IMG/VR virus record: IMGVR_UViG_3300009502_002970 | Coordinates: 1 to 57,518 of that record | DNA: 57,518 nt | Strand: one strand, 5' to 3' | From: a virus | Taxonomy: Duplodnaviria; Caudoviricetes | Part shown: in pieces, positions 2,806-45,482 of the stretch | How positions within the stretch are numbered: position 1 is the first letter of the stretch | Layout of the letters: each line of letters begins with the position of its first letter | Made by a program: the position numbers and the translations under genes | Notes under the pieces: model-generated | The model's database searches: none | What the model was told of the DNA's origin: nothing | Seen by the model: the letters and a program-made list of their open reading frames with translations, nothing else

Positions 2806-2815
2806 ATGATTTGGG

Positions 2816-3160: not shown

Positions 3161-3170
3161 GTCCTAATGT

Positions 3171-4793: not shown

Positions 4794-4833
4794 GCAGCAA
4801 TATTATAATTTGATGAACGAAAAATAAAGGACA
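4794..4833 (-). promoter_or_regulatory. Putative late promoter TGTCCTTT-N20-TAATATTG, leaderless
   Basis: TGTCCTTTA starts exactly 40 nt before the ATG at 4793; same geometry at other sites. Confidence 0.75.
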
Positions 4834-6477: not shown

Positions 6478-6479
6478 AC

Positions 6480-9782: not shown

Positions 9783-9784
9783 AA

Positions 9785-10246: not shown

Positions 10247-10261
10247 GGGATTATTTAATTA

Positions 10262-10771: not shown

Positions 10772-11576
10772 TTTCCGGGAATTTTCGTTTCAGTTCATAA
10801 TAATCGATCGACTTTTTCTCCAATCCAAAGAATACGTTGTACAGATTGGAGTTCATAATGCAGTTCAGGCTTGCATCATCGGTTTTTCCATCGGCCAGGG
10901 AGATCACCAGCGACGTCCACCCGCTCAGATCGCTTTTATCGGATCCTCCCGACTGCCTGTAAACATTCGGGAACTTTTCCATCAGGGATGCCTGTATCCC
11001 GGACAGGAACAGGAATACGGAATACTTGGTTGCATGATCTACCCTGCTCATCCGACCGGCGCGTGCCGGCAGGCTCTTGTCTATAAACCGCTGCCTGGGA
11101 TCATTGGATTCTGTAAACCGCTTGCTTATCAACCAGAACCACTTTCGGGGCCGGTAAAGTATTGCGGCCAGTTCGTCCAATGCTCTGGCATCCGGAGCCG
11201 ATGCATACTGCTCATAACGAACCTGGGCTTTTATGAACTCCCCGAAGGTACATTCCGACATGTTATCCGTCGGACCGGTATACCGGGTCCACGGGAACCG
11301 GGGCATTCGGATCGATTTGACAAGGCAACGCGTAAGCGTCACGTCGTTTTGCAGGAATGAAAAGGATTCTGAGAGGAAAATAACATCATCCGGAGCAATC
11401 TTTTTGAACTGCTTTAATCCCAGGGAAAGGAACTTCCGCAGGATGTTAACCTGGAAAGATGCAAGTGTGCCATACTTGCCGAAAATCGAACACACGTAGA
11501 TCAGCTGATCCCGGGTGAGCTCATTCCATCTAGATGGCAAAAACCTCTTCTTATTATCGATCAAAACCTCGACCAT
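10764..11576 (-). CDS. Phage protein (possible tail assembly chaperone)
   Basis: 270 aa, P..WNELT and TFGEF motifs; paralogue 53445-54257. Confidence 0.5.
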   Translation of the reverse strand: MVEVLIDNKKRFLPSRWNELTRDQLIYVCSIFGKYGTLASFQVNILRKFLSLGLKQFKKIAPDDVIFLSESFSFLQNDVTLTRCLVKSIRMPRFPWTRYTGPTDNMSECTFGEFIKAQVRYEQYASAPDARALDELAAILYRPRKWFWLISKRFTESNDPRQRFIDKSLPARAGRMSRVDHATKYSVFLFLSGIQASLMEKFPNVYRQSGGSDKSDLSGWTSLVISLADGKTDDASLNCIMNSNLYNVFFGLEKKSIDYYELKRKFPEND

Positions 11577-11851
11577 AATTGATCAATCAGTATAAAAACA
11601 ACATATAATGCCATTGCCACCTGTGACAGAGTCGGCTTTTTCGTCTTTGGTTTACACGCGATATCCTCCTGCATCGAGCTTTCAGGGTGAAATAATTTGT
11701 GTTCAGTTTTCATGATCATCAGTTCTTGTGTCAGATTTTCAATCCGGGCGATCATTTCTTTAAAATCGGCACGCTGGTTGCGCTGCTGGTAGAGATATGC
11801 TCCATTCAAAAGAGCGATTATCCCAAGGAGTACGGTGTTGTCATTGAGCAT
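11561..11851 (-). CDS. Small membrane protein (holin-like candidate)
   Basis: N-terminal TM helix, coiled coil, C-terminal hydrophobic segment; paralogue 54254-54532. Confidence 0.45.
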   Translation of the reverse strand: MLNDNTVLLGIIALLNGAYLYQQRNQRADFKEMIARIENLTQELMIMKTEHKLFHPESSMQEDIACKPKTKKPTLSQVAMALYVVFILIDQLWSRF

Positions 11852-11865
11852 GTGGATGAGGTTAA

Positions 11866-12924
11866 TTATGCAACAAAAATTGATTTATCACTCGTGTTAA
11901 TGAATTCAGCCCTGGTGACAGCAGTTGCTGGCCCAACGTAGCGGGATGATCCGAAGTATGCAGCATACTTCGTAGCTGAAGCGTTGTTGTCAAGGAACTC
12001 CTGCAGCGCCTTCATATCGGCGTCCCCATCCCTCTGATATGCTGCCTGCATTTCTCCCAGCCGGTTCTGCTGAAGCAGTGTCTTATTCTGAACATTTTTG
12101 AAGGTGTTGTCGGCCAGGTTGAATATCCCCCAGTCAAGCATGTCGATATTGATTTCCACCAGCGCCCTGGCCATGGTCAGATGTACCACGGCCGGCAGGA
12201 TGTAATCCATCAATTCCTTATTCTCATCTGTTAAGGTAGCCGAACTGGCAATTTGCGTATACAGCAGTTCATATAACTCCCTTGATAATGTGGGCATCAG
12301 GTAGCGCTGCTCAATGTTACGCATAAGCGGCATCATGGCCAGGAATACGCGCCTGGAGGCATGGATATCCGCATATACCTGGAATTGCTTTGCGTCTTTG
12401 ACCAGTAATTTTGAATCGTAAAAATCACCAGCCCGTTCATTGAACGTATCGAAGTTATTTTGAATCAATGCCAGGCACAGATCCATCTGCTCATGTGCCC
12501 GGGCAATGTAACGTTCCTTGACATTCATTACCTGGTACTGCGGCGCCGGCCGGTGCGTATCGCTCTGGATCACCGTCACACCCGTTCCTGATAGATTCAC
12601 CGACAATTCATCCACACTCAGGTACAAGGCGTACAATGATTCTGCCTTAATCACCAGGTGAATCAGTTTCCACCAGTTTAGTTCATCTAAAATCTCACGA
12701 GTAACTAGCGGCGTTTCGTCCTTCGATGGGATCTCTTCAGTTAATGTTGGATCGTCGTCCGTATTTAACCTATAAAAAAGGCTATTCATCATTGGTGTCG
12801 GGAACATCGGCATAATAAAGATGTTATGCGCATCGTCCACGAAAGGCTGCAGTAATTCAAACTTGAGCGTGACCGGCACCGGAGCTGCAGTGGCTATATG
12901 GTCAATGGATGTGACTAAGTTCAT
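11866..12924 (-). CDS. DUF6712-like protein (probable head-tail adaptor)
   Basis: Directly after portal; PAPQYQ and DIH.SRRVFL motifs; paralogue 54544-55599. Confidence 0.65.
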   Translation of the reverse strand: MNLVTSIDHIATAAPVPVTLKFELLQPFVDDAHNIFIMPMFPTPMMNSLFYRLNTDDDPTLTEEIPSKDETPLVTREILDELNWWKLIHLVIKAESLYALYLSVDELSVNLSGTGVTVIQSDTHRPAPQYQVMNVKERYIARAHEQMDLCLALIQNNFDTFNERAGDFYDSKLLVKDAKQFQVYADIHASRRVFLAMMPLMRNIEQRYLMPTLSRELYELLYTQIASSATLTDENKELMDYILPAVVHLTMARALVEINIDMLDWGIFNLADNTFKNVQNKTLLQQNRLGEMQAAYQRDGDADMKALQEFLDNNASATKYAAYFGSSRYVGPATAVTRAEFINTSDKSIFVA

Positions 12925-14249
12925 GGCTGTGTTTTATCAACTTTTTGATTGATTTTTGAGGGATGCTGATCCTGTGTCTGCGAGGTATCAACGCAGATAT
13001 AATCAAATTGGATGGTGGGATCCCAGTGATTGAAATCTCGGATGAAATACAGTGGCGAAAGTGATACGGCCCGGTCTGTTCCCATATCCGCGTTAAGCAT
13101 CCAGTATGCCTCACGTTTGTCAGATCCTGACCCGGCTCCCATTTTCCCTCCCGGGAGACCGGCACCTATCAGGCAGGGATCAACACCGATAGCAAACAGG
13201 ATCTCCGAGTTCGCCGCCTGTGAATCGGGAAGGTATGCCGAGTTCTCCAGCTTGTTTTCAATCACATTGATCTTCCACCCTGTTAAATAATCCTGTTTGG
13301 CTTTGCTATAGAACGCGTAAGTGACCAGGGCTTTTCCAGAATTCTCCACGTTAGCCAGGAAGTCATTCATATCCTGCAATACTTCCGCCCGTTTTGCCTC
13401 CCGCTGTTCCTTGGTATAGTCCGCAGGGGGGAAACGGGTGGTAAAATAATCATCCGGGATCTCAATGTGATACTTGATGGTCATCTGGTTCTTCATGATG
13501 GCTTCCTTAAGCATCGGAACCTTATTGGCGATGCTCAGCCACTTGTTCGCACGAACGGAGTGCCACACGGGAAGCGCGTAGTAACTTTTGTTGAAAGAAC
13601 GGTAAGAGAGCTGCATGGCAAACTGTCCATCCGGATACTTCGTGCCATCATACCTGGAGGAATCGAACATCGGCAGGTCCTTCATGTATGTACCATCATC
13701 CTGGGGCATCATTTCCCACCGGGCCGAATAGTACATGAAATCTATCTTGTCATTCTCATCCATCTTAGCCACGCGGCAATAGGCAGGATCCTTAACATAT
13801 ATCCTGTTTACCTGCGTTTTTCCCTTATTTAGGATAAATTCCACCCATCCGTTGGCAAAAATCTCCAGGCCCAGGATCAGATCCGGCCACTGCAGGTTGA
13901 TTTTGTTAACGCGAAAGAACTCCGTAACCACAGGATCAGTTACGATTTCCCTGGTAACCTCGCCTGCGGCGTCCTTTTTTTCACGGTAAGCGACGATTCC
14001 CCGCCCAAAATGAACCCTCTTGCGCTTGTCAAGTGCCCGCATGGCCACCGAATTCGATTCCAAATCAGTCAGCAGATCCTGCGGAAACAAATTGTTTGAT
14101 CCCCAGTTTGACCATAAATTGGGAGAAACATCATACGGCGGGGTGATAATTGGACCTGCATAGTCTGCAGAAGATCCTTTCATCTGCGCGATAGCCTTTG
14201 CCCCGGGCAATATGGCATAATCTCCCTGTACAATTACTCTGTTTTCCAT
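12921..14249 (-). CDS. Portal protein
   Basis: 442 aa; WGSNNLFPQ, YYALP.W, L..VENSGK and GSGSDKREA motifs typical of Bacteroidota phage portals. Confidence 0.8.
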   Translation of the reverse strand: MENRVIVQGDYAILPGAKAIAQMKGSSADYAGPIITPPYDVSPNLWSNWGSNNLFPQDLLTDLESNSVAMRALDKRKRVHFGRGIVAYREKKDAAGEVTREIVTDPVVTEFFRVNKINLQWPDLILGLEIFANGWVEFILNKGKTQVNRIYVKDPAYCRVAKMDENDKIDFMYYSARWEMMPQDDGTYMKDLPMFDSSRYDGTKYPDGQFAMQLSYRSFNKSYYALPVWHSVRANKWLSIANKVPMLKEAIMKNQMTIKYHIEIPDDYFTTRFPPADYTKEQREAKRAEVLQDMNDFLANVENSGKALVTYAFYSKAKQDYLTGWKINVIENKLENSAYLPDSQAANSEILFAIGVDPCLIGAGLPGGKMGAGSGSDKREAYWMLNADMGTDRAVSLSPLYFIRDFNHWDPTIQFDYICVDTSQTQDQHPSKINQKVDKTQP

Positions 14250-14590
14250 CAGAACACGACTTTTTGGTGATTAAATTCAATGATCAGGCGGATATGGATG
14301 GTCCTGATCTGTTTGTTAGGCAACAGGATGTTCCTTGTAGCATTCGCCCAGTGATGAGGATCACGTTTCTCTTTCACGGTCGTTTTCTTTTCCCTGGTAT
14401 CAAACACTACCTCATCATTGCGGGATCCCACGCATTTACGTGCACTGGGCACCTCTATGATTTCACCGCCTGTTTTACGCTGGCGGTCAGCCGTGACGAA
14501 CTTTAACTGAAAACTCATGGGCACGCCATTCTCATCGAGTTCGTCCATCATGTCGAGCGCTGTGCTGAGCTGTATGATCTTTCCTGCCAT
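14249..14590 (-). CDS. Conserved small phage protein upstream of portal
   Basis: DPHHWANATRNI and IRT.HIRLIIEFN conserved in 56930-57274. Confidence 0.7.
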   Translation of the reverse strand: MAGKIIQLSTALDMMDELDENGVPMSFQLKFVTADRQRKTGGEIIEVPSARKCVGSRNDEVVFDTREKKTTVKEKRDPHHWANATRNILLPNKQIRTIHIRLIIEFNHQKVVF

Positions 14591-14630
14591 GGTGCAATTA
14601 TAATCCGGACCATGCTCTTGTTAAAGGACA
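14591..14630 (-). promoter_or_regulatory. Putative late promoter TGTCCTTT-N20-TATAATTG, leaderless
   Basis: Motif starts exactly 40 nt before ATG 14590. Confidence 0.75.
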
Positions 14631-14647
14631 ATTGTAATCTACACCCG

Positions 14648-14731
14648 ATCTTGCCCATCTTGCCCGGGATATTGCCCATCTTGCCCAAAATCTTCCATTT
14701 CTTCCATGAAATCTTCCATTTCTTCCATTTA
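14648..14731. repeat. Four tandem 21-nt units, each two 9-mers plus 3 nt
   Basis: atcttgcccatcttgcccggg / atattgcccatcttgcccaaa / atcttccatttcttccatgaa / atcttccatttcttccattta. Confidence 0.85.
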
Positions 14732-14737
14732 CGACAT

Positions 14738-14768
14738 AAAAAAAAGGTTCGCCCACCAGGGCGAACCT
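14738..14768 (-). terminator. Rho-independent terminator
   Basis: AGGTTCGCCC/GGGCGAACCT stem followed by T8 on - strand, downstream of 14791-15228. Confidence 0.85.
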
Positions 14769-14790
14769 CTAAGGAACGAAGGATCGAAGA

Positions 14791-15228
14791 TCAGAAGTTT
14801 ATTTCATTCTCTACTTCCAGTATGCTGGCGTCGAAGGCGGTCTTGAGGAACTCAATGACTTTCTTCACACCTGCAGTGAAGCTGGTGGTGAAAACATTGC
14901 CATCAGAGTCATTCAGTCGCATGGAACAGTTGAAATCGTTCGATGAAACCCTGAATCGTTCCAGTTCTGACCTGGTTTGTACCAGTTTTGCCCGTTTTTC
15001 GATCAATAATTCAAGATTTTCGATCAGTTCGATCTTTTCCTGCATGGTCATAACTTTCTTTGGAAGTTCGACCGAGGCAGCCTGATCAGCCTCCATCGCT
15101 TCCATCTGCTGGATGAATGAAGTTTCAATTTCAGTGGCCTGGATAATTTCAGCGACTTCAACTGCATGCGAATTTGTGCGTGACTTTGTCATGAGTGTCG
15201 CCCCTGCCCTGGGGACTTTTGTAGGCAT
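14791..15228 (-). CDS. Hypothetical coiled-coil protein
   Basis: 145 aa; C-terminus (RLNDSDGNVFTTSFT) conserved in partial ORF 57390-57518. Confidence 0.75.
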   Translation of the reverse strand: MPTKVPRAGATLMTKSRTNSHAVEVAEIIQATEIETSFIQQMEAMEADQAASVELPKKVMTMQEKIELIENLELLIEKRAKLVQTRSELERFRVSSNDFNCSMRLNDSDGNVFTTSFTAGVKKVIEFLKTAFDASILEVENEINF

Positions 15229-15244
15229 CTGGCACAGCCTGGTT

Positions 15245-15404
15245 AAAATTTATGCCAGAGAAACAATCGGAATGAAAATTCTGGAACAAACGTTCAGGTC
15301 ATGATCATGCAGTGATCTGAATGAACCCGAAGGGCGACGGATCCATCAGGAGGGCGCGTTTAGTGACACGATATTTTCGTGAGATTACCTTTGCATCAAA
15401 TTTT
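15245..15404 (+). promoter_or_regulatory. Long imperfect hairpin 1 (candidate ssDNA promoter / structured element)
   Basis: Arms aaaatttatgc..aatc and gatt..gcatcaaatttt; TACCTTTG at 15386-15393; core GTTCA-GGTC-GATCAT/GTGATC-TGAA-TGAAC-CCgaaGGG. Confidence 0.65.
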
Positions 15405-15559
15405 GAGTAATTGTGCGTTGGCTTTTGCTTGCTTTTCATAAAAGCTGCCCGTAAACCGGTTTTCTTTTTGGATGTCTTTTTCTTTGCCGGATTGGTCCCA
15501 AAGAAAAAGTCCCGACTCCGAACATCCGGAACCGAGACTTAACCTGGAAATAAATTAAG

Positions 15560-16180
15560 CTATAGCTTAATAACCATCCCTGCAGGTGTTAACTGCACTC
15601 TCTTATGCTGAAGAACTATACCGCTTTTCCTTATGTCATTGCCGCCAGAAATAAGATTAACGATCGATATTATTCCAAATAACCCGGCAGCGCCGCCAAC
15701 AGCATAAATTGAATTCCTCTGCGCATCTACATCTTTTATTAACTGTGGGATTAATGCCGTTGAAGTTGTAAGAAGTACTGAAATGCAGCCATAAATACCG
15801 GCATTCCTCAAGTCTTCCCCTCCCATCCTCATTAATTCACCGGATATTTCATCATCAGTCATGCCAGATTTAAATCCTGTTATTATTTTGCCATAATCAT
15901 TTTTATACTGCCACTCTTGATTCTTATTAAGGTTGGTTTTTGGTAAACTTTGGCCATTTGTACCATCACCTCTGCCGGCCATTTTCATAAACTTTATCGA
16001 ATCATTATTTACAGTCCTTATTGTCGAGTCGGGCGGAACGGTATAAATAATATTTATTCTATCCCGATTAATGATATTTACATTCATTATTTTGCCGGAA
16101 TTCATAATAATTGTATCCTGTGACTGTACGGAAACTGTCATTAACAAGATGATTGAGATAAAAAGAAAAGTAGTTTTCAT
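15560..16180 (-). CDS. Secreted/membrane hypothetical protein (moron-like)
   Basis: Signal peptide ..VSVQS-QDTI, two C-terminal TM helices, AT-rich. Confidence 0.7.
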   Translation of the reverse strand: MKTTFLFISIILLMTVSVQSQDTIIMNSGKIMNVNIINRDRINIIYTVPPDSTIRTVNNDSIKFMKMAGRGDGTNGQSLPKTNLNKNQEWQYKNDYGKIITGFKSGMTDDEISGELMRMGGEDLRNAGIYGCISVLLTTSTALIPQLIKDVDAQRNSIYAVGGAAGLFGIISIVNLISGGNDIRKSGIVLQHKRVQLTPAGMVIKL

Positions 16181-16264
16181 GGCTTTATTTTTGTGCAATT
16201 TATAATAATTTTCTCAATTGTGAAAAATAGCGCCCGGATAGTATGCCCCGGGCGCATTAAATGA

Positions 16265-16600
16265 TCACGCCTCAATGGATAACGGCGGATCAGATGGCAA
16301 CTTTACCTCTTCCCTGGATAAAGCGTTTAACAAGCTTTCGTACACCGGTTCCAGGTCTTCAATCAGTTCGCTGATCTCCTTGTACAGGAAACACAGATCA
16401 GCGCGGTATTCGGGTGTCCACTGTTCCGACTCGTCAGAACTCATGGCCACCACAAACAACTGTCGCAGGTACCGGTTAGCAAATTTGGATTTCGTGATTA
16501 AAAAGAAACTGTCCAGGATATCGAGTATCGATTGTTCTACCGGACTGCCACAAAGGGCGCATGTGGTTGCATTCTCGTCATTTGATCTTTGCATAATCAT
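16265..16600 (-). CDS. Hypothetical protein with CxxC; paralogue of 34597-34875
   Basis: RQLFVVAMSSDESEQWTPEYRA vs RQMFVAAISAEESAVWTQEHRA. Confidence 0.65.
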   Translation of the reverse strand: MIMQRSNDENATTCALCGSPVEQSILDILDSFFLITKSKFANRYLRQLFVVAMSSDESEQWTPEYRADLCFLYKEISELIEDLEPVYESLLNALSREEVKLPSDPPLSIEA

Positions 16601-16696
16601 GAATTTAATTGTTAAAAAATCAGGGAAGGTCGCTGCAGACATAACAAACTTTTGGTTAATTGGTACACTCACAGTGAAATTTATTTTTGGTACCTA

Positions 16697-17242
16697 TCAA
16701 ATATTTGCAATTTTCGATAACCTTTCAGCTCTTAAAGTATCCAAAAATACTCGCCATATTTCATCCCAGAACAGCAAAAACAGCGGAGAAATTCCATAAC
16801 AGATAGGGGGATCATAATTAAACGTTTGCATGAGTGCCGGGCAATATCTTTCCAGGTTATTAAAAAAATCATGTTCCTGTATACGGAAAGGATATTCAAG
16901 CTCTGTCCAGATCACCCTGGCTGTATTGACATGAGTGCTTCCTGATCTTACACTGCATACAACTTCACGTTTGATGGTCTGGATCGTGCGTTCCATATCC
17001 AGCGTGTGGGCGCATCCAAATTTTCTGGCAACATAGTGCTTGTCCAATCCTTCAAGAAACTGTTTAAATGGTTCGCCACAGGCTCCCCAGTAGTAGGACC
17101 AGTTGCCATAATCCGAGGCTATTGATAACCTACCACTTTTCCCATGCGTATCCACGTTGATGTCGGCCCATGGAGTTGCAGAAGAATGCCTTATCTTGTA
17201 GCATTCGATATTATTTTTTGTGATAATAAAGTCTTTTTTCAT
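16697..17242 (-). CDS. Hypothetical phage accessory protein
   Basis: 181 aa ORF with I.SDYGNWSYYW motif, A-rich upstream region. Confidence 0.65.
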   Translation of the reverse strand: MKKDFIITKNNIECYKIRHSSATPWADINVDTHGKSGRLSIASDYGNWSYYWGACGEPFKQFLEGLDKHYVARKFGCAHTLDMERTIQTIKREVVCSVRSGSTHVNTARVIWTELEYPFRIQEHDFFNNLERYCPALMQTFNYDPPICYGISPLFLLFWDEIWRVFLDTLRAERLSKIANI

Positions 17243-17262
17243 TGTTGCGTTTTATTAATTTA

Positions 17263-17301
17263 TCTGACCAACCCTCATGCTGAGCCTGAGGGTTGGTCAG
17301 A
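17263..17301. terminator. Perfect inverted repeat (terminator/stability hairpin)
   Basis: tctgaccaaccctca / tgagggttggtcaga 15-bp stem between two co-directional genes. Confidence 0.6.
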
Positions 17302-17310
17302 AATTTCAAA

Positions 17311-17856
17311 TTATCCCCCGAATTCTTCCTGGTTCCTGAACAGATCAAGCTGGTTTCGGTTGTTTTTGCCCCGGCTGTATGCTGCCTGGCGCTCCTCCAG
17401 TTCAAGACGTTCGATTTCGAAGTACCGTTCATCCTTCAGCAGTTCGGCCCTCAGCTCTTCGATACGGTTCTTTCTGGCGGCACTCTGGCGAAGGCTTTCT
17501 TCAGTTTTGCGCAGCCGGCCGAATAACAGATCGTCGATAGTCGAATAAACCCAAAGTTCGAATGCCGGGCTTAACCATGCGGCAAATTTCAGAGCAAGAA
17601 TACGGTGCATCCAGGTGCCGGATTTCTGTGAAGAAATAATTAAATCATCCTCGGATTTTATGTTTAAATAACGCTGATTAGCGTTATTTAAACATTCTGC
17701 GATGAACAATTTCGACTCTTCAATGCGGGTAAAATTTTCCACACGTTTGTCAAAAATCTTCGCCATCTGTGTGGCATTGATCATTAAATTATGATTTCCC
17801 TGTTCAAAATCGACTTCCAATCCGTTGAACTCAAATTTCACGATGTTTTTTTTCAT
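17311..17856 (-). CDS. KilA-N domain DNA-binding protein
   Basis: MINATQMAKIF and GTWMHRILALKFAAWLSPAFELWVY, plus C-terminal coiled coil. Confidence 0.9.
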   Translation of the reverse strand: MKKNIVKFEFNGLEVDFEQGNHNLMINATQMAKIFDKRVENFTRIEESKLFIAECLNNANQRYLNIKSEDDLIISSQKSGTWMHRILALKFAAWLSPAFELWVYSTIDDLLFGRLRKTEESLRQSAARKNRIEELRAELLKDERYFEIERLELEERQAAYSRGKNNRNQLDLFRNQEEFGG

Positions 17857-17947
17857 TGTTTTACTGTTTTTGTGTTGGGTTAGTATAATTGATTGATTAA
17901 AAAAGGTTGAATAAGGGGATATCCCCCTATTCAACCTGACTTCCTTC

Positions 17948-19657
17948 CTATTTCTTCTTGTTTTTCTTCGCATTCAATTCCCCTTCCAGCTCCAGGATAC
18001 GCATCTTGATGGTGTGGTTGCGTTTGGCATAACTGGCATTAATCTTATCGGTAATGGCCGCCATCTCATCCGCGTAAAAAAACGTGATCACGCTAAACAG
18101 AAGCATTACCTTATCCTTGTTGCTATTCGGATCCGTCTCCTGCAGTTTATACCTGAGCCAATACCTGAACTTTACGATATCCTCATCATGGGGAATGATC
18201 ATGGGAGTGGTTGATTTGCACACGCACTGCTTATCCGTGTACGTATGTCTGTGCGAATCATACATCAGGAACATGAAAGCCCTGGTCTCACTATTTGTGA
18301 TCAAACAACCCGACTTATGATAGTTCGACTTGCGAAACATCTCATAAGCCTGGTTATATGTTTTCTCAAATGCCAGTTCTTCATTACGTTTGAGTTTCTC
18401 GCGCAGCTGCTCCAATTCCTTTGCCTTGTCCAAACCTGCCGGTGTCATGTCAGCGGAAATATCCCGTGACCCAGTGGGCATATAGTGTACGATTTCTCCC
18501 CTGTTATGGCCGGCCACCATCAGCACCTTGACAACGTTTCCTGCTGCAATATCAGCGTTGTATGTTTCAAGTTCGGCCTCGTAATCGGCCATTTCCACAT
18601 AATAGTTGTCAATATCATCCGAAAATTCCTCATCATCGTCAACTTCAGTGTAGTCTTCCCTTTCTGGTTTTTCAGGCATCTGCGGCGGATTTATCCTCTT
18701 GAATCCCGTATCGTACGAGAATTCATTGACCAGTATATTATCAGCCTTGATCTTCTTGATGATTTCCTTGTCATTTTCCGGGATATAGGTATCCACGCCG
18801 ATAGCAATTCCCGGTTCATTGTCTGTGATCCTTTTAACTTCCTTCAGCAGGAACGCTTCTTTTTTCTTCTTTAGGCATGACACGTTCATGCAGATCCCTT
18901 CACCTTCCAGGGGAAACAGGCCGTATCCGGAATTAGTGTTGTCCGGGCATGAATTGCATGCCGGTCTTCCCGGGAGCAAGGTGTCATCATACAGCCCGAA
19001 GGATATTTCAGCAAGCTTGGCCGAATACATTCGCTCGATCCAGTTCTTCAGCTGTGATATTGAAGGAGGATCCCAGTGATTTGATTCGTGATTTTTAAAC
19101 GCAAAATCGTACAGTTCTTCCTGTCCTGGTTGTGAAAGCTTTGCAACCTCCAGTATGGTTGTCATGTTGATCCGATCGGATACCCACAACAGTTTGAATG
19201 GTGCGGTAAGATCATTCAGCTTCAACCGCATCCGGATATATCCTTGAGATTTGCCGAACTTGAGCGCCAGGTCAGCGATAGTATGGTGCCCTTCCCGGAT
19301 CAGGTTGATATATGCGTGCGCTTCTTCCAGCGGATGGATGTCTTCCCGCTGCAGGTTCTCGGTGATGGTCAGTTCCATCACCTCATCATCGGATAGATCA
19401 CGGCAGATACATGGCACCTCAGTCATTCCGGCAATGGCAGCTGCTTTCATCCTGCGTTCGCCGCAGACAACCTGGTATTTGAGTTTCTTGTTTGTACCAT
19501 GCACGCGCACGATCAGCGGGGAAAGGATCCCGACTTCTTTAATGGAAGCGGCCAGCTCTTCCAGGTTCTCTTTCACGAAGCTTTGCCTGGGATTTATCCC
19601 ACTGGCTGCAAGATCCTTCAGCGGGATCATGGTAATTGTTGGTGATTCTGTTTTCAT
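17948..19657 (-). CDS. ParB/RepB/Spo0J family protein (long form)
   Basis: NPRQSF..LEELAASI..G..PL.VR, GERR, ENLQREDIHPLEEA, HTH, CxxC cluster, acidic tract. Confidence 0.9.
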   Translation of the reverse strand: MKTESPTITMIPLKDLAASGINPRQSFVKENLEELAASIKEVGILSPLIVRVHGTNKKLKYQVVCGERRMKAAAIAGMTEVPCICRDLSDDEVMELTITENLQREDIHPLEEAHAYINLIREGHHTIADLALKFGKSQGYIRMRLKLNDLTAPFKLLWVSDRINMTTILEVAKLSQPGQEELYDFAFKNHESNHWDPPSISQLKNWIERMYSAKLAEISFGLYDDTLLPGRPACNSCPDNTNSGYGLFPLEGEGICMNVSCLKKKKEAFLLKEVKRITDNEPGIAIGVDTYIPENDKEIIKKIKADNILVNEFSYDTGFKRINPPQMPEKPEREDYTEVDDDEEFSDDIDNYYVEMADYEAELETYNADIAAGNVVKVLMVAGHNRGEIVHYMPTGSRDISADMTPAGLDKAKELEQLREKLKRNEELAFEKTYNQAYEMFRKSNYHKSGCLITNSETRAFMFLMYDSHRHTYTDKQCVCKSTTPMIIPHDEDIVKFRYWLRYKLQETDPNSNKDKVMLLFSVITFFYADEMAAITDKINASYAKRNHTIKMRILELEGELNAKKNKKK

Positions 19658-19751
19658 TTTGTTGGGTTTGGGTTAGTAAAAGTATTTGTTGCAAAAAATA
19701 CAATTCGATACAGCCGCCATATGGCGGCTGTATACTCATTAACAGAAATTA

Positions 19752-19982
19752 TTATTCAAACATTATTTTATCAATGATGTCGGATGTAGTATATCCAAGT
19801 TTGACATTATATTTTGTTTCAATTTTCTTGATCATTTCGCTGCATTTATTCCGTATTTCATCACCAATCTTTTGTTTATCCTTTTCGCTTATATCAGATT
19901 CCTCGAAAGCAAACGAATCAAATTGTTCACCGGATTTTGCAATTAGTGCCGTTGCTATATCTTTTGCCATTTCCTTTGTCAT
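19752..19982 (-). CDS. Small hypothetical protein
   Basis: 76 aa AT-rich ORF flanked by hairpins at 19708-19733 and 20021-20046. Confidence 0.55.
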   Translation of the reverse strand: MTKEMAKDIATALIAKSGEQFDSFAFEESDISEKDKQKIGDEIRNKCSEMIKKIETKYNVKLGYTTSDIIDKIMFE

Positions 19983-20150
19983 AACCCTGATTTTTTAAAA
20001 TTGAACTTCTGTTAATTGCCGCTAACCGCCATACACGGCGGTTAGCCCTGTGCATTAGGGGCAATAGAGGATGATGACTTTCACCATCCTATGCCCCGTA
20101 ATTTTACAACCTTACAAGCCTTGCCTTTAAGCATTCGTTGTAGGTGCCAT

Positions 20151-20501
20151 TTACCCTGCAGATTCGGCATACTCAACTTTTTTAGGATAAATTACTTCGG
20201 CAAACAAATTCTCAACGGTTGCCATCAGTTTCGATGGCAACACGGTCTGTGTATCCAGCGCGATGGTGGTATCAGCAGCCCACAGGGTGATGCACCATCC
20301 GAACCTAAGGAAATGTTTCTTCCTGGTCTCCGAGTAAACGTACATGTAACGAGGCATGATCGACACGTATCTGAACGTGTCAATCGTTTTCATTGCGCCA
20401 AAGGCGGTTGATTTCCCGTCAAACGTCGTCCCACACCTGTGAAATCCCAGGGATTTAAGCAGCGGCCAGCAGGTAGTTTTTGAAATGTCGATTGTTTCCA
20501 T
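20151..20501 (-). CDS. Hypothetical protein
   Basis: 116 aa, closely spaced with upstream ORF. Confidence 0.55.
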   Translation of the reverse strand: METIDISKTTCWPLLKSLGFHRCGTTFDGKSTAFGAMKTIDTFRYVSIMPRYMYVYSETRKKHFLRFGWCITLWAADTTIALDTQTVLPSKLMATVENLFAEVIYPKKVEYAESAG

Positions 20502-20506
20502 TGGGA

Positions 20507-20824
20507 TCAGTGTTTGAGATTCACAAAGTCGGTGTTGATCAGGTGGAACTTTGATCTTTCCACCGCTGGAATATGTTCACAGGTTGTGAATACAAAATTG
20601 ACTTTCGGATTTCTTTCCCTTAATACATCAAGAGAAAGAATATCCTTTAGTGATGTACATTCTTCAATGATCACCAGGTCATAGGAGAAAACTGTATACG
20701 TGTTCTTCTTGATAAATTCCCTGGTCGTTAGAAGGAAGTTTACACCAAACAAATGTGCGATACCAAGACTGATCCACGACTTTCCTGAAGCATGCGGACC
20801 ACTGATTATAATTGCCTTATTCAT
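20507..20824 (-). CDS. Small P-loop NTPase-like protein
   Basis: Walker A GPHASGKS, Walker B-like LVIIEE; only 105 aa. Confidence 0.55.
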   Translation of the reverse strand: MNKAIIISGPHASGKSWISLGIAHLFGVNFLLTTREFIKKNTYTVFSYDLVIIEECTSLKDILSLDVLRERNPKVNFVFTTCEHIPAVERSKFHLINTDFVNLKH

Positions 20825-20974
20825 CTTTTGTTGCCGGTGCCATCCGGTCTTTTTGAGGGTTTCATGGCGTTCCCTGGGTTAGTTGTTTGAATTATTTTAA
20901 AAACATATCGACAACAAAGTAAATACATTTGAATATATAATCCAAATGTATTTACTTTATTATCTAAATTATTT

Positions 20975-21709
20975 TCACATGGCACCATCATCTGCAAAGG
21001 AATAATACTGATCCCCGCCAATGATGATATGATCGAGCACGGCAATGTCAAGCAAAGCGCCGCTGTCGTGTATCTTCTTGGTGATCCGGATATCAGCCTC
21101 ACTGGGCGTTGTAACGCCCGACGGGTGATTATGTCCCAGGATGATCGATGATGCATGATGATCAAGGCATACCTTGAATATCTTCTTTGGATCCACTACA
21201 GTTCCGGATATCCCGCCTTCGGAAATCCGATGCCGGCCGATCACTTTGTTTGCCCGGTTGAGCATCAGGATCCAGAACTCTTCATAAGGCAGATCGCGCA
21301 TCAGGGATGCCAGTATCCTCCTGGCGTCATCACTGCGGGAAATCTTATCCCGGATAACTGCCTCACATGCCTGTTCCCGCCGGCACATGGAGAACATGGC
21401 TGCCAGTCTCACTGCAATTCCCTGGCCAATGCCTGGTACCTGGCACATGTCAGCCACGCTCATCTTCCACAGCTCCTGCAGGTGATTGTTGCATGCAGCC
21501 AGCAGTGTCCTGGAGATGTTCAGTGAAGTATTTCCAGCTATGCCATTGCCAATGATCAGCGAGAGGATCTCGGCATCAGATAGTGCATGGGTCCCCTTGA
21601 GTAACAGTTTGGTTTCAGGGAGATCATCCTCGGCCCAAAGGCGCATGGGGATTTCATTTGCGTAATTGCGACCATCTTCGGCCACCCGGGATACAGTTGA
21701 TTTTTTCAT
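20975..21709 (-). CDS. radC: RadC-family JAB domain protein
   Basis: N-terminal ALSDAEIL and HhH (VPGIGQG), JAB motif HNHPSG...PSEAD, LDHIIIG. Confidence 0.95.
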   Translation of the reverse strand: MKKSTVSRVAEDGRNYANEIPMRLWAEDDLPETKLLLKGTHALSDAEILSLIIGNGIAGNTSLNISRTLLAACNNHLQELWKMSVADMCQVPGIGQGIAVRLAAMFSMCRREQACEAVIRDKISRSDDARRILASLMRDLPYEEFWILMLNRANKVIGRHRISEGGISGTVVDPKKIFKVCLDHHASSIILGHNHPSGVTTPSEADIRITKKIHDSGALLDIAVLDHIIIGGDQYYSFADDGAM

Positions 21710-21731
21710 AGGAGTAAGGGTTAAGGTTAGA

Positions 21732-21876
21732 ATGAAATTTTCTCGCCCTGGCTCTTAAACCGGATTGATCGGATCAGGTCAATAGTGTTGGTCAGATTAC
21801 ACGGTAATCTGAATACACCCAACGGGCACCGCTGTTGAGCGTTCCGATCGATGCAGGTACCTTGGAAAGATTTCAT
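21732..21876 (+). promoter_or_regulatory. Long imperfect hairpin 2 (candidate ssDNA promoter) upstream of radC
   Basis: atgaaattttc/gaaagatttcat and attgatcgga/tccgatcgat stems; TACCTTGG at 21858-21865; same GGTC/TGAA core. Confidence 0.65.
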
Positions 21877-21924
21877 GCGAACCTACCCTCTCCATATCCC
21901 AATCACGTGGCGGTATTGGGGCAT

Positions 21925-21950
21925 AAAAAAAGCCCTGTTGCCAGGGCTTT
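21925..21950 (-). terminator. Rho-independent terminator
   Basis: aaagccctg/cagggcttt stem with T7 on - strand after HTH gene. Confidence 0.8.
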
Positions 21951-21962
21951 ATAATAATCAGG

Positions 21963-22253
21963 TCATCCCTGATCCGCTGGCCGTCGCCATCGGTTCTTCA
22001 TGGTTTCCACCAACTCATCTTCTGCATTCTTGTCAATAATAAACACATAGGTATCAATGACATCACAGAGGGTTATGAGATTATCCAATGTGATGTTGTG
22101 ATTTCCCGACAACATCCTGAATACATTGGGCTGCTCGAACCCTGTTAATTCAGCGATCTTATAGGTTGACAAACCTTTTTCCTTCGCGGTTTCACGCAAA
22201 TATTTGCACAGTAACTTCCTGGCATAAATTATCTTATCATTTTGCATAAACAT
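21963..22253 (-). CDS. XRE/Cro-family HTH regulator
   Basis: GLSTYKIAELTGFEQPNVFRMLSG..NITLDNL. Confidence 0.85.
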   Translation of the reverse strand: MFMQNDKIIYARKLLCKYLRETAKEKGLSTYKIAELTGFEQPNVFRMLSGNHNITLDNLITLCDVIDTYVFIIDKNAEDELVETMKNRWRRPADQG

Positions 22254-22294
22254 AATTTTAAAGGGCCGGTTTCCCGGCCCCGGTGTTTAAATAA

Positions 22295-22561
22295 TTAATC
22301 GGCGTTATTCCAAGCTTTTGCCAACCAAACTTCGGCAGCATGCGCTTCAGCATATATTGCATATTCGCAGTTACCAGACTTTGCCCGTGCATAGGCGAGA
22401 CTTACCTCTTCAGCACATTTTTTTGATAACCAATTTTCATTTTTAGCAAAAATTGAAGCTTCTACTTCGAACTGATCACAGGCGGCAAGATATGCCGCAC
22501 TCTTATTGGTGATGGTTGCATCTGTCCTGATTTTCTCGATGGTGTCAAATTGTGTGTTCAT
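22295..22561 (-). CDS. Hypothetical protein
   Basis: 88 aa from MNTQF, A-rich leader. Confidence 0.6.
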   Translation of the reverse strand: MNTQFDTIEKIRTDATITNKSAAYLAACDQFEVEASIFAKNENWLSKKCAEEVSLAYARAKSGNCEYAIYAEAHAAEVWLAKAWNNAD

Positions 22562-22756
22562 GGCGTTTTTTTTTTGATTGTTTGATGAAACAAAGATAAT
22601 ATCATTTATGATATTACACAAGTATTTAACTGTTATTTTTGAACAGCTGAGTAATTTATTTCTATTCTAAATAACACTGATCAGTGTCCAAACGCGAGTA
22701 CTCGCGTAATGCCGCGCGATTCTGCCGCGCCTTACAGCCATAAGGCATCCGAGCAT

Positions 22757-22786
22757 AAAAAAAGGGTACGGTATTCACCCGTACCC
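22757..22786 (-). terminator. Rho-independent terminator
   Basis: gggtacgg/ccgtaccc stem with T7 on - strand. Confidence 0.8.
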
Positions 22787-22795
22787 GATGTTCAT

Positions 22796-22966
22796 TTATT
22801 TTTTCACTGAGCACTGGCTTTGCAATTCAGCCATTTCCCACATAAGTTTATCCAGGTTTGTTTCTGCAATGTTTTCTACATAGCCGGGGTAATAGATACT
22901 ATCCAAGGTTTCGATGAACATCTGTTCGTAAGACTGATCTAGCGTAGTTTTTTCGAGCGTTGTCAT
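22796..22966 (-). CDS. Small acidic protein (56 aa, not in ORF track)
   Basis: MTTLEKTTLDQSYEQMFIETLDSIYYPGYVENIAETNLDKLMWEMAELQSQCSVKK; lies between hairpin 3 and a terminator. Confidence 0.7.
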   Translation of the reverse strand: MTTLEKTTLDQSYEQMFIETLDSIYYPGYVENIAETNLDKLMWEMAELQSQCSVKK

Positions 22967-22992
22967 GGCTTTAGAGATTAAGGATTAATACT

Positions 22993-23201
22993 GAAAGTTT
23001 CTCTCTAAGCGAAGCTTCACACCGAATCGGTTGAATTATGTCACAGAGTGCAGGTCACGATTCCCACTATCGAATCTGAATGCACCCCAGGGGCACGGCT
23101 CTTGACAGTACGGGTTCTTCAAGGGATACTCTCCCACCCCGGAGAAACCCGTGAAGAACCCGTAGGCAATTCAACCGATATAGGTACCTTGGAAACGTTT
23201 C
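22993..23201 (+). promoter_or_regulatory. Long branched hairpin 3 (candidate ssDNA promoter)
   Basis: atcggttgaatt/aattcaaccgat 12 bp, tacgggttcttca/tgaagaacccgta 13 bp; TACCTTGG at 23185-23192; same core. Confidence 0.7.
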
Positions 23202-23601
23202 GAGGATTAACCATTCCGCCTAACCGGATAGATCGGTGATCTGTGCCGGTGCATCAAAGGGTTTCTTTTTGCCAGCTTTTTCTTTTCCCGTTTTTCAAAA
23301 GAAAAAGCTGCCCGGATTGCATCTCATGCAAATAAAATGGCGTTTGCAGTCAAAAAACAGGCATTTTTCAAGCCTCCAAAATATTAACCGGCGATCATAA
23401 CCAAAATATTGCATTTTGTGTATGATTGTCCCACGCCCCGCCCTGACGCTTTTTTGACAATTTCAAAGGCTCTCCATGCAGGATATATGAAAAGGCTGTT
23501 TAGAATGGTTCTACATGGGTTCACAATGCACACGCGCCCAATACATAAAGAACTGCTCCCCTATGATGCAGACGCACTATGTTGTAAAGTTGTGTGTAGG
23601 A

Positions 23602-25101
23602 CTATCCTATGATGGACATGTCATGTGATGGCTCATGATCACCAACACTTTGAAAGAACATCCAGTAGTAAAGGTTGTCAACTGCATCACTCAGATCAGT
23701 TGCCTTCCACCTTGGTTGCCCTTCCCTGCGCTCTGATGACTTATCCTTCTTGAACTCACTGGGCAGCACAGGCGCACTGTCCATGGACACAAAGGTCTCC
23801 ATTGCATTGTTCATGTTGATCCTGAAGTCAGGCGTGTTGCCACTGTCATTCATGAGGAACTTATGCCAGAAGATGAACTTATCCATGTGAGATATCTCAT
23901 GCAGTTCAGCACACACGTTGACTATCCATCCTGCCTTGGTTAGTTGCATGGTCACATCATCGAAGTACGTCTGCCTTGATGATGCATCATTGCGACGCGT
24001 ACCATCACTGCCACCATAGATGTTGATTGCCTTACGCTGATGATGCTGGTAATACTCGATGAACTTATCTACCAGTACTGCCAGTGTTTCATTCTCCACA
24101 TAGAAGTTCTTGATGATAGGGAACTCATTGCTTACCCTGTGCCATTGACACACGACCATGCAGTTCTGGGTAGATCCGAAGTCGAATGATGCATACAGTT
24201 CAAGGGCACTGATACAGTCAGCATCACCCCTTGAATCCAGGCCGCCATCTTTAAGATCATGACCTATGCCATCATAGAACGCATAGTTGTACGAATCATA
24301 ATAGCAATGCTTTGCAGCGCTCAGCGCTGGATAGAAACCATTGATGTTTGTTTTGCGGCGGATATTCTCGATCTCTATATCATACACCAATGCAGGTAAT
24401 GTTCGTTTGGCATCACGAAAATAGCGCGCTCCCAGGATTCTTTCATTATATCTGGCTGATGCTTCCAGGAACATGAACTCCTTGGGAAATTCAGTCTCCA
24501 TTTTTTCGTATTCAAAAACCCAGTCACCTCCAGGAGTAAGAGGCTGTGATCCCAGGAACAAGGTACCATGATGAAAGCGTATATGCCCGAACTTATCTCC
24601 ATTGCCACGATTCGCAGGCAACACATCAGAATCGATCGCGCTTTTCTTGAGTTTTGTAGCCTCGTCAAAGATCATGTAATCATAGGATCCTGACCTGGCC
24701 ATCTCCGGCCGGTCGAAGGAATTGAACTCAACCACAAACCCGTTATACCAATGAATGCAGTTGGTATAATCCAACGGCGGCTGAAAAGGTTCGGGCCAAC
24801 CCAGTTTTTTCGGCGCCCGGACACCAACAAAGTAATGCAATCCCCGGTATAATCCCCTGCGCTCCAGGTGAGATATGATAGGCGGCATCGATTTGGTTCT
24901 GATATGGAAATAAGTCAGACCGTTAAGAGATATTTTTCCCCTGGGCATGAACATCATGCAATCAAGTATCTGATCAGCGATGATGGTTGTCTTACCTACA
25001 CCCCTGCCTCCGATAAACATCTTGTGAGGCCGGGTGCACAGCTTGATCACACGCTGCGGGTAGTTATAATATGGGGCCGGGACGATCTCTATATCCTGCA
25101 T
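23602..25101 (-). CDS. terL: Terminase large subunit
   Basis: Walker A GGRGVGKT, Walker B MIFDEA, RNase H-like FDFG and DLSDAVD. Confidence 0.9.
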   Translation of the reverse strand: MQDIEIVPAPYYNYPQRVIKLCTRPHKMFIGGRGVGKTTIIADQILDCMMFMPRGKISLNGLTYFHIRTKSMPPIISHLERRGLYRGLHYFVGVRAPKKLGWPEPFQPPLDYTNCIHWYNGFVVEFNSFDRPEMARSGSYDYMIFDEATKLKKSAIDSDVLPANRGNGDKFGHIRFHHGTLFLGSQPLTPGGDWVFEYEKMETEFPKEFMFLEASARYNERILGARYFRDAKRTLPALVYDIEIENIRRKTNINGFYPALSAAKHCYYDSYNYAFYDGIGHDLKDGGLDSRGDADCISALELYASFDFGSTQNCMVVCQWHRVSNEFPIIKNFYVENETLAVLVDKFIEYYQHHQRKAINIYGGSDGTRRNDASSRQTYFDDVTMQLTKAGWIVNVCAELHEISHMDKFIFWHKFLMNDSGNTPDFRINMNNAMETFVSMDSAPVLPSEFKKDKSSERREGQPRWKATDLSDAVDNLYYWMFFQSVGDHEPSHDMSIIG

Positions 25102-26549: not shown

Positions 26550-27232
26550 TTTGCCAGCAGCTTATCAACCTCGAACAGCTGCTCTTCGTATGCTGCCAAT
26601 GACAGCCGGTAATGATCTTGTTTCGCTTCTTTGCCCGGGTTCTTCAGATACCCTTTGATCCGGGAGATGTGTGAACGGATATTCGTTCGGGCCTTGATCA
26701 GTTCAACCGGGTCCAGGGTAGACACTGAAGGTTTCTCTTTCTTACCTGATTTCCCGGCCACCGGTGGCAACACCCCATACTTTTCAAAATGGTTTTTCCT
26801 CTGGTACATGGCATCAAGTTCATCAGCTACATCCAGGATCATCAGTGCATCATGCCTGCGCTGATCATCACCTACCAGCTCGAGGGTTGCATGAAGTGTG
26901 TCCAGGGCTTTCCAGTGCATCTTGATATCCTTGAGCAGCGCGGCAATATCACCCTTGTCATCATTGGAGATGCCTACCCTGGTGATCACTACGGGCGCCG
27001 CCGGCGCATTGACCTGAACCGGTGCAACCCTTTTGGGTGGCACTGTGAACGGTTGCACTGATCCCAGCAGCTGTGTCAGTTCATGCACCAATGTTTCATG
27101 CATGGCCGGCGAAGGATCCTGCCGGGTTAGCAACCGCTTGAGGTTACCGCTGCTTCCATACAGTTCATAGAGTTCTACTCCCCGGGCAAAGTCACGTGAC
27201 GATGCCAGCCAGGCTTTTATTGCTTCATTCAT
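26546..27232 (-). CDS. Hypothetical phage protein
   Basis: 228 aa from MNEAIKAWL; coupled to neighbours. Confidence 0.65.
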   Translation of the reverse strand: MNEAIKAWLASSRDFARGVELYELYGSSGNLKRLLTRQDPSPAMHETLVHELTQLLGSVQPFTVPPKRVAPVQVNAPAAPVVITRVGISNDDKGDIAALLKDIKMHWKALDTLHATLELVGDDQRRHDALMILDVADELDAMYQRKNHFEKYGVLPPVAGKSGKKEKPSVSTLDPVELIKARTNIRSHISRIKGYLKNPGKEAKQDHYRLSLAAYEEQLFEVDKLLAK

Positions 27233-43801: not shown

Positions 43802-43810
43802 AAATTGGAT

Positions 43811-44416: not shown

Positions 44417-44417
44417 A

Positions 44418-45473: not shown

Positions 45474-45482
45474 AGGTTGGAA

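Follow-up and report, generated by a model that had tools for sequence, protein, structure and literature searches.

Recurrent palindromic cassettes upstream of prophage operons in Bacteroidales as candidate fold-dependent promoters

Three long imperfect palindromes in the window (the whole stretch of viral DNA analysed here, 57,518 nt) belong to a family of about 230 copies, which is characterised by a covarying apex, a constant orientation, a host-type -7 box with its own geometry and a recurring set of downstream genes. With slightly less than even confidence, we interpret these cassettes as a new Bacteroidota class of fold-dependent (single-stranded DNA or cruciform) sigma-A promoter on a tailed phage. 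To our knowledge, promoters that work only in a folded single strand come from a handful of proteobacterial plasmids, where they place the expression of anti-defence genes in the first minutes following entry. If the interpretation is true, the cassettes would carry this principle into a second phylum and onto a different kind of mobile element. It would also suggest a tailed phage with a single-stranded or extruded DNA stage and provide a simple sequence rule for early anti-defence genes in Bacteroidota viromes, namely, a palindrome across which a perfect -7 box stands on the "wrong" strand. The wider claim, that one lineage of the tailed dsDNA phages infecting Bacteroidales has its template strand single-stranded or extruded early in infection or replication and fires ArdC, SSB, RadC and ParB-like genes from hairpin promoters read by the host sigma factor, is doubtful; if it is true, the cassettes would be the first fold-dependent promoters outside Proteobacteria and a phage counterpart of zygotic induction in conjugation, and the invariant apex would be a new recognition module on folded DNA.

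Results

A sequence-only reading of the window had described three copies of a core at the top of long hairpins, consisting of a covarying stem, a GGTC/TGAA internal loop and a CCCnnnGGG hairpin. All the strings were confirmed at the three apex positions (Table 1), each at the top of a long hairpin as had been described; in every copy of the family, the apex forms P3 of an imperfect palindrome of 170-250 nt. The pattern built from the earlier description matched three places in the window (four rows, one of which was an overlapping alternative), and 0.04 matches were expected from 100 shuffles of the window. The covariation of the stems was borne out against shuffles in a wider set of 74 distinct copies: 92.0% of the cells paired (74.5% in the shuffles), 148 cells carried double changes (50 in the shuffles), and none of 500 shuffles attained the observed value. 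When the 3' partners were slid along, the pairing fell to 24-51%. The loop is less open than it was drawn; TCA can pair with TGA (UA, CG and AU, invariant in 74, 74 and 70 of the 74 copies, respectively), which leaves GG facing A(T) as the whole internal loop. One base is bulged within the apex of copies 1 and 3. The small CCCnnnGGG hairpin, the last G of which is common to the next stem, is present in the window copies but is not general, being absent or replaced by CTC/GAG or CC/GG in many relatives.

Table 1. Positions of the cassettes, their parts and the neighbouring genes in the window
Feature	Position	Strand	Remarks
Cassette 1	15237..15409	+	Whole imperfect palindrome, type B, upstream of structural operon; CM match 51.6 bits
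Apex 1	15292..15335	+	P3 stem, GG/A(T) loop, TCA/TGA + variable hairpin, CCC-GAA-GGG hairpin
Base duplex of cassette 1, gene-side arm (AAAATTT)	15245..15251	+	53 nt before likely ATG at 15192
Base duplex of cassette 1, far arm (AAATTTT)	15398..15404	+	Pairs with 15245-15251; predicted start region
Exact host -7 box of cassette 1, TACCTTTG	15386..15393	+	Template strand, gene-distal arm
Cassette 2	21725..21885	+	Long hairpin upstream of radC; z -3.5 as RNA
Apex 2	21785..21827	+	CM match 59.4 bits
Base arms of cassette 2 (ATGAAAT, ATTTCAT)	21732-21738 and 21870-21876	+	Arms pair; DNA fold of this strand closes the base
Box variant of cassette 2, TACCTTGG	21858..21865	+	One mismatch to TAnnTTTG
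Cassette 3	22985..23210	+	Long hairpin with extra inserted hairpin, upstream of 56-aa gene
Apex 3	23048..23094	+	CM match 53.6 bits
Base arms of cassette 3	22993-23001 and 23192-23201		
Box variant of cassette 3, TACCTTGG	23185..23192	+	One mismatch
First gene after cassette 1	14791..15192	-	133-aa protein; family accounts for 18/103 first genes
radC	20975..21709	-	RadC JAB + UPF0758_N; first gene after cassette 2
ParB_N protein gene	17948-19657		Behind radC
KilA-N protein gene	17311-17973		Behind radC
First gene after cassette 3	22796..22966	-	56-aa protein; family accounts for 25/103 first genes; no known domain
Terminase-large-subunit-like gene	23602..25101	-	Landmark upstream of cassette island
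Intrinsic-terminator-like site	14743..14770	-	Right behind first gene of cassette 1
Further terminator-like sites	22764-22786, 21929-21950, 17904-17937, 16230-16255, 15507-15540		

Of 101 related genomes, 43 contained copies of the apex family, as did phage contigs of IMG/VR; a phylum-wide sample of 150 genomes from outside the taxonomic family did not yield the motif. The Rfam search proposed by the sequence-only reading (radC and Flavo-1 included) gave no family match: there were 0 matches at the gathering score in the whole window, radC, Flavo-1, Pedo-repair and STAXI were not among the 13 weak matches (E up to 10) in the region 15100-23700, and searches of seven further loci (E up to 1) gave none of these four. 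Cassette 1 had no blastn match among phages and none at E 0.01 among 72,556 plasmid records, and the family model found nothing in Polaribacter phage Leef_1 (best E-value, 1.8). A possible fourth cassette near 39291 was inspected and dropped. Likenesses to loop A of the hairpin ribozyme (NGUC/NGAA; dropped for the TCA/TGA pairing and with no loop B seen), to the K-turn, to the tRNA T-loop and to lambda boxA were considered and likewise dropped.

Cassette 1 belongs to an alignment of 29 type B sequences with a consensus fold, and the consensus folds contained 17 and 13 compensated pairs. As DNA, the template-strand folds had a mean z-score of -3.8, with 77% below -2. The palindromes precede minus-strand operons of tandem prophages of Bacteroidales, in which terminase, portal-like, protease and tape-measure genes are ordered as in Polaribacter phage Leef_1 (Helgolandviridae). 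All 34 matches in terminase-anchored loci were on the gene strand and downstream of the terminase gene. The first genes after 103 copies were a 57-aa family (25), RadC (22), ArdC (19), a 133-163-aa family (18), SSB (2) and ArdcN only (1); for the 133-aa gene of cassette 1, the start was placed at the second ATG on the basis of an MTK/MSK start conserved across copies. Neither the 57-aa nor the 133-163-aa family had a functional lead in ESM Atlas, and many phage ORFs were without a Pfam or PHROG family. Strong terminator-like sites stand behind the first genes that follow cassettes 1 and 3, and operon 2 contains such sites as well.

The -7 box of the host, TAnnTTTG, was enriched 5.3-fold at -55 to -20 from host start codons, whereas its one-base or spacing variants were at 0.85-2.1-fold at the same positions. 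Of the 105 copies that were defined by the pattern and had complete flanks (about 6 look false), 79 carried the exact box on the template (window +) strand in the gene-distal arm, 60-120 nt beyond the apex; only 1/105 had an exact box on the gene strand downstream, and no host-type -7 box was found on the gene strand within 200 nt upstream of the cassettes (0/105). At least 12 further copies had a one-mismatch box in the same setting. The following bases C and A agree with the host consensus, the box often being TAnnTTTGCA. The box is directed away from the genes as long as the DNA is a duplex, and faces them only once the template strand is folded. Note that TACCTTGG, present in two of the three window copies, was not enriched at host promoters, which counts against the promoter interpretation. 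There was no clear -33 element at the usual spacing; the -33 element is weak in this genome too.

The flanks of the box were complementary to the gene-side arm in 0.8-0.99 of the copies, and the box itself in 0.44-0.77; in the predicted DNA folds of the template strand, the box was paired in 0.29-0.43 and the flanks in 0.5-0.63. A base duplex begins 2-5 nt past the box, with its partner arm located 23-67 nt ahead of the ATG. The sequence of this duplex varies by subtype with its complementarity kept (12 bp in type C and 17 bp in genome G081; AAGAATTT/AAATTCTT in L087). In the gene-side arm the copy of the box is degraded differently in each subtype, whereas in the upstream arm the complement of the -7 box is perfectly preserved. 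Two candidates were dropped: a gene-strand -7 box at the downstream block, because its variants TAAATTT[C/T] and TAnnnTTTG were not enriched at host promoters, and a sigma-54 site at the downstream box, because the -12 GC is missing.

The strand that folds was examined with wobble pairs. In type B they favour the template strand (24 cells versus 2), whereas type A was mixed, with template-strand wobbles in the base helix (35 cells) and P1 (8 cells) and sense-strand wobbles in a well-covarying helix (7 cells) and in a doubtful one (48 cells); thus, the test is clear in type B alone. Wobble pairs were rare in P3 (12 of 888 cells). The predicted fold of each strand favours that strand's own wobbles. 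The template strand gave the better fold in 64 of 75 copies, but the shuffles were equally biased (4.7 versus 5.2 kcal/mol), so that the difference in folding energy reflects base composition. Single mismatches within predicted helices numbered 156 versus 122, which decides for neither strand, and in one block a count by register gave too noisy a result for a strand call.

Discussion

The promoter that we propose would work as follows. The window + (template) strand would fold back on itself, and the gene-distal arm would supply the perfect sigma-A -7 box of the host as the non-template strand, facing a deliberately imperfect partner, with the short conserved duplex (AAATTT) 2-5 nt further on. 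RNA polymerase would start in this duplex and exit through the base of the hairpin into the gene, giving a leader of 23-67 nt. In duplex DNA the promoter would be silent, because the box is misdirected and the gene-side copy is spoiled. The cassettes would thereby drive the first genes of an anti-defence or establishment island (RadC, ArdC and SSB, with ParB-like genes behind radC) and, in one case, a small gene ahead of the structural genes, and the terminators would fence off the genes so driven. We infer that sigma-A uses the cassette box and that this tailed phage has its template strand single-stranded or extruded at some stage, whether through displacement of the strand, resection of ends or extrusion of a cruciform. 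Against this, the element is related to tailed dsDNA phages and no relaxase (PF03432) was found in the 99%-complete host genome, so that no single-stranded stage is known for it. The sequence-only reading had offered a protein-binding fold of single-stranded DNA (primosome, RNA polymerase or SSB exclusion) or an unnamed non-coding RNA. This interpretation is borne out in part: its single-stranded DNA and RNA polymerase branch is favoured by the lack of an Rfam match, by a -7 box on the folded strand that faces the genes only when folded, and by ArdC, SSB and RadC downstream. The wobble test, clear in one subtype only, limits this support. The apex described there is itself not the promoter; it is the most conserved part, and the promoter model gives it no role.

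The main rival, somewhat unlikely in our judgement, is a leader in the sense RNA, in which read-through, or a phage-specific promoter lying directly upstream, would make the palindrome part of the mRNA, and the apex would contact a protein or the polymerase to give resistance to terminators (as nut, put or conAn do) or would control translation or processing. The terminator-like sites after the first genes of cassettes 1 and 3 and in operon 2 agree with such a leader, and terminators inside operons fit antitermination as well as they fit the promoter scheme. Invariant loop bases with covarying stems resemble a protein-binding RNA; a block (CGCAC, a few bases, TTA) is conserved directly 5' of the hairpin base; the commonest loop of the small hairpin is C(UUCG)G when read on the sense strand; and type A has the 7 sense-strand G.U cells in its covarying helix. 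Plasmids of the pLS20 family, as far as described in the cited account, control like genes by a promoter with antitermination or by long structured repeats (PMC8708921). However, the gene strand lacks a host-type promoter within 200 nt upstream in all 105 copies, although it may have a phage-specific one, and the terminators of the preceding operons stand directly upstream. The scarcity of wobbles in P3 and the type B wobbles on the other strand also speak against an RNA, and a leader leaves unexplained why the upstream box complement is perfect and the downstream copy is degraded subtype by subtype. If this explanation is right instead, the cassettes are a new and abundant family of phage leaders, with about 230 copies for study.

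A second alternative, which we regard as improbable, is that the box is an ordinary duplex promoter for an antisense or divergent, oop-like transcript that runs toward the end of the operon before it, and that the adjacent palindrome is a separate element such as a terminator, an insulator or, within read-through RNA, a site for RNase III. The box fits the host consensus and would fire toward the preceding operon in duplex DNA, and type A has a U-rich run on the sense strand after the 3' arm of P1. On the other hand, the + strand has no T-tailed terminator-like site downstream of the box in any of the three window cassettes, the + strand sequence past the box is poorly conserved between subtypes, and neither the constant order and orientation nor the pairing of the start region with a conserved block some 200 nt away, 23-67 nt before the ATG, is explained. 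Finally, it is very improbable that the apex and stems play no part in a promoter and are an operator on duplex DNA or, on single-stranded DNA, a priming or replication site (for a primosome, a primase or the exclusion of SSB): the inverted repeat TCAGATT...AATCTGA is common to about 60% of the copies and a priming function in complementary-strand synthesis is also reported for Frpo-type elements (in the cited description; PMC12672017), but the remaining copies carry unrelated complementary sequences in its place, with loops of 3 to about 40 nt, so that a fold fits and a fixed duplex operator, its stems and loop lengths being too variable, was dropped, and a replication site leaves unexplained the -7 box and the strict one-strand placement before genes (34/34).

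The fold-dependent promoter that we favour can be compared with known systems. In phage N4, early promoters are hairpins with a 5-7-bp stem and a 3-nt loop that are read by a giant virion RNA polymerase; the proposed cassettes would share with them the expression of phage early genes from a promoter extruded as a template-strand hairpin, but here the fold spans about 200 nt and the box belongs to the host, and the scanned ORFs yielded no gene for a giant virion RNA polymerase of this kind. The published single-stranded DNA promoters, in the descriptions cited, are large stem-loops that rebuild promoter boxes and fall into classes with no sequence relationship to one another; the genes they drive are ssb, psiB, ardA and klcA (PMC12672017, PMC11541004). 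Frpo/ssi elements of IncF and IncI1 plasmids (classes 1-3), as there described, share with the cassettes a large imperfect template-strand stem-loop immediately ahead of operons, several co-oriented copies per element, and downstream genes of the same kinds (ssb, antirestriction); their stem re-forms a host sigma promoter box, as that of the cassettes may do with the -7 box. The cassettes differ in that the search with cassette 1 gave no match to any plasmid record (the Frpo/ssi classes, as described, are mutually unrelated too), and in having a Bacteroidota -7 box instead of -35/-10 and a conserved three-way apex with invariant bases; they are in a tailed prophage of a host without relaxase, not in the leading region of a conjugative element, and their activity on single-stranded DNA is a prediction.

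The STAXI and radC motifs are, as far as the cited report describes them, structured and placed beside SSB, antirestriction, integrase or RadC genes, as the cassettes are; its authors raise a single-stranded DNA role for STAXI and list the radC motif for Proteobacteria (Weinberg et al. 2010, PMC2864571). Neither covariance model matched the cassettes (E up to 10 in the window region and up to 1 in the seven loci). Lambda nut, HK022 put and pLS20 conAn/EGeRS are likewise repeated structured elements at the start of operons followed by terminators, and the pLS20 leader elements precede establishment genes in the cited account (PMC8708921); these elements act as RNA behind a normal promoter, whereas the sole host box of the cassettes is on the other strand.

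Core motif and architecture of the cassettes

Re-reading of the sequence placed the three copies of the core motif (Table) exactly where the sequence-only reading had put them, and a pattern derived from its description matched only these three places of the window, with 0.04 matches expected. The compensatory stem changes that it had pointed out were borne out in 74 distinct copies, in which 92.0% of the stem cells were paired (74.5% in shuffled sequences) and 148 cells carried double changes (50 in shuffled sequences). Within the proposed GGTC/TGAA internal loop, TCA and TGA are nearly invariant and complementary to each other; thus, what is left of the internal loop on the + strand is GG facing A(T). 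Many members of the family, though not all, have the small CCCnnnGGG hairpin. Rfam, suggested earlier as a check, gave no match at the motif copies at the gathering score or with E up to 10. All the long ORFs around the three copies are on the minus strand, and each copy precedes one of their minus-strand genes by 60-110 nt.

In the wide alignments, the core proved to be, as described, the top of a long hairpin; it forms P3, the apical stem of a three-way junction, with P1 and P2 as the other stems, seated on an imperfect palindrome of 170-250 nt (the cassette). On the sense (minus) strand, the palindrome ends with the conserved CTCGAAATTT and gCAAAGTTACC upstream and with AAAATTTCA downstream. 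The upstream end block pairs with the downstream one to form the base duplex, of which the sequence varies by cassette subtype (types A and B among them) with complementarity retained.

In most copies of types A and B, the P2 loop reads AGGAGG(T) on the template (+) strand and (A)CCTCCT on the sense strand, the latter resembling the 16S anti-Shine-Dalgarno tail; the loop is conserved in many copies, not all. A conserved block of GCCAGATGCC, an A-rich stretch and CAGGGCAGGGGC, on the leader side of the 133-aa gene, is common to all type B copies; it separates the predicted start from the ATG that this gene likely uses. Another ATG further upstream (15228) is in frame here but not in relatives, and this block is therefore probably leader rather than coding sequence. 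A/T-rich hairpins, GGGCAGCTTTT...AAAAGC(TG) followed by A-rich runs, lie ahead of cassettes 1 and 3, and again upstream of type B copies on other contigs. Directly after radC there is a long perfect inverted repeat that is AT-rich (17% G+C), for which Rfam gave only weak matches at chance level.

Table. Positions in the window of the motif copies, their first genes, and associated features
Feature	Positions	Strand	Remark
Core motif, copy 1	15292-15335		
133-aa ORF	14791-15192	-	First gene after copy 1
Core motif, copy 2	21785-21827		
radC	20975-21709	-	First gene after copy 2
Core motif, copy 3	23048-23094		
56-aa ORF	22796-22966	-	First gene after copy 3
P2 loop (example)	15347-15352	+	AGGAGG
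Leader-side block	15193-15235	-	Probably leader
A/T-rich hairpins	15440-15475, 23280-23345	-	Ahead of cassettes 1 and 3
Inverted repeat	20887-20963		Exact TAnnTTTG on both strands (20924, 20950)
Divergent exact boxes	22598, 22634	-, +	36 nt apart
Exact gene-strand box	30122	-	At the glycosyltransferase-like cluster
Exact gene-strand boxes	40599, 40696		Within plus-strand gene region
Glycosyltransferase-like cluster	27225-30110		
Tandem phage-like elements	428-14916, 43100-57515		42.67 kb apart

Distribution of the cassettes

A covariance model of the core, made from 13 copies in the 99%-complete host genome that bears the prophage, found 15 copies in that genome and had matches in 43 of 101 related genomes. 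Of the 60 genomes that belong to the family, 40 were positive, and these usually had a cluster of several copies; a sample of 150 genomes across the remainder of the phylum gave no match. Anchoring on homologues of the terminase-like gene yielded 37 loci, 17 on IMG/VR contigs and 20 taken from 31 MAG loci; all 34 matches in them lay downstream of the terminase-like gene, on its strand. The loci of the terminase-like homologues include some from lake-derived MAGs of Bacteroidales and Prolixibacteraceae. Many cassette copies lie 0.03-2 kb from contig ends on C47, C68, C86, C138 and C140 of the host genome (loci L009, L011, L015, L013 and L014); assembly seems to have broken off at the repeats, and the copy numbers per genome are therefore lower bounds.

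Candidate promoter box and folding strand

On the opposite strand, the conserved block upstream reads TAnnTTTG, of which the two n positions vary among copies. This is the -7 box of the host: between -40 and -21 relative to start codons, each 10-nt bin holds 157-162 occurrences versus about 25 elsewhere, a 5.3-fold enrichment (0.85-2.1-fold for one-base and spacing variants). Counts were made on 115 distinct cores collected by pattern; 105 had full flanks, and about six look false. In 79 of these 105 copies, the template strand carried the exact box at 60-120 nt past the apex; the gene strand had it in one copy downstream and in none upstream. At least 12 further copies, window copy 3 among them, have a box with one mismatch at the corresponding place; in the window, only copy 1 has the exact box, and copies 2 and 3 share a one-mismatch variant. 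No clear -33 element accompanies the cassette box.

In duplex DNA, the template-strand box is directed away from the genes. The box pairs imperfectly with the facing arm, and its flanks are nearly always complementary; the gene-side copy of the box appears, as we read the alignments, to have been spoiled differently in each subtype. An AAATTT duplex lies 2-5 nt past the box, with its partner 23-67 nt before the ATG, which is the usual distance from box to ATG in the host genome.

We tentatively regard the cassette as a fold-dependent sigma-A promoter of the Frpo kind (the single-stranded-DNA promoters of conjugative plasmids), which would bring such promoters to a new phylum and to a tailed phage; this is the best-supported reading, plausible rather than probable. 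In the folded template strand, which would have to become single or extruded, the box would lie on the arm acting as the non-template strand and would be read from loop to base. The main rival is a sense RNA leader that would act in antitermination. It would accord with the terminator-like sites found within operon 2 and behind the first genes of cassettes 1 and 3, and with an apex that resembles a protein site, but is opposed by the lack of any host-type promoter upstream on the gene strand and by the asymmetric conservation of the box.

As for the strand that folds, folding energy favoured the template strand, yet shuffled sequences had an equal bias. For type B (29 aligned sequences), the consensus fold was -20.8 kcal/mol on the template versus -13.7 kcal/mol on the sense strand, and the helices that were shared or supported by compensation held 24 G.T cells on the template versus 2 on the sense strand. 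The type A signal (34 sequences) was mixed: on the template strand, the base helix held 35 wobble cells and P1 held 8, and on the sense strand, one helix that covaries well held 7 and an extension of P2 held 48, the latter in competition with an invariant Watson-Crick pairing. In P3, wobble was rare on either strand (12 of 888 cells). Overall, the evidence leans toward the template strand as the folding strand, short of proof.

First genes and phage context

When 103 cassette copies were grouped by their first ORF, this encoded a 57-aa family in 25, RadC in 22, ArdC (ArdcN with a zincin peptidase) in 19, a 133-163-aa family in 18, SSB in two and an ArdcN-only protein in one; small groups made up the remainder. 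Behind radC, the window has genes of ParB_N and KilA-N proteins. According to PMC11541004, PMC12672017 and PMC8708921, the single-stranded-DNA promoters of IncF and IncI plasmids serve the same gene set from several co-oriented structured repeats; they are large stem-loops in which promoter boxes are rebuilt, and their classes are unrelated in sequence. No relaxase was found in the host genome.

The window holds two tandem phage-like elements with 70-80% nucleotide identity, which carry terminase-like, portal-like, S49 protease, primase and tape-measure-like genes; the scanned ORFs of the window contained no integrase domain. The host genome has three terminase homologues, with cassettes after each. 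About 340 nt past the window, at the point expected for the start of the next cassette, the contig ends. The Polaribacter phage Leef_1 (Helgolandviridae) has a terminase-like protein of 31% identity and shares the gene order; unlike the window phage, it is devoid of the motif.

In the remaining phage, only two exact gene-strand boxes lie in intergenic DNA leading into minus-strand genes (22598 and 30122), and two more are within a plus-strand gene region. The former of the intergenic boxes belongs to a divergent pair between the 56-aa gene and an HTH (XRE-type) gene, which resembles a conventional switch region of duplex DNA within operon 3. The latter is at a glycosyltransferase-like cluster within the phage (GT2, TOD1/MUCI70-like and Stealth-like); the cluster is probably a moron that brings a normal promoter of its own.
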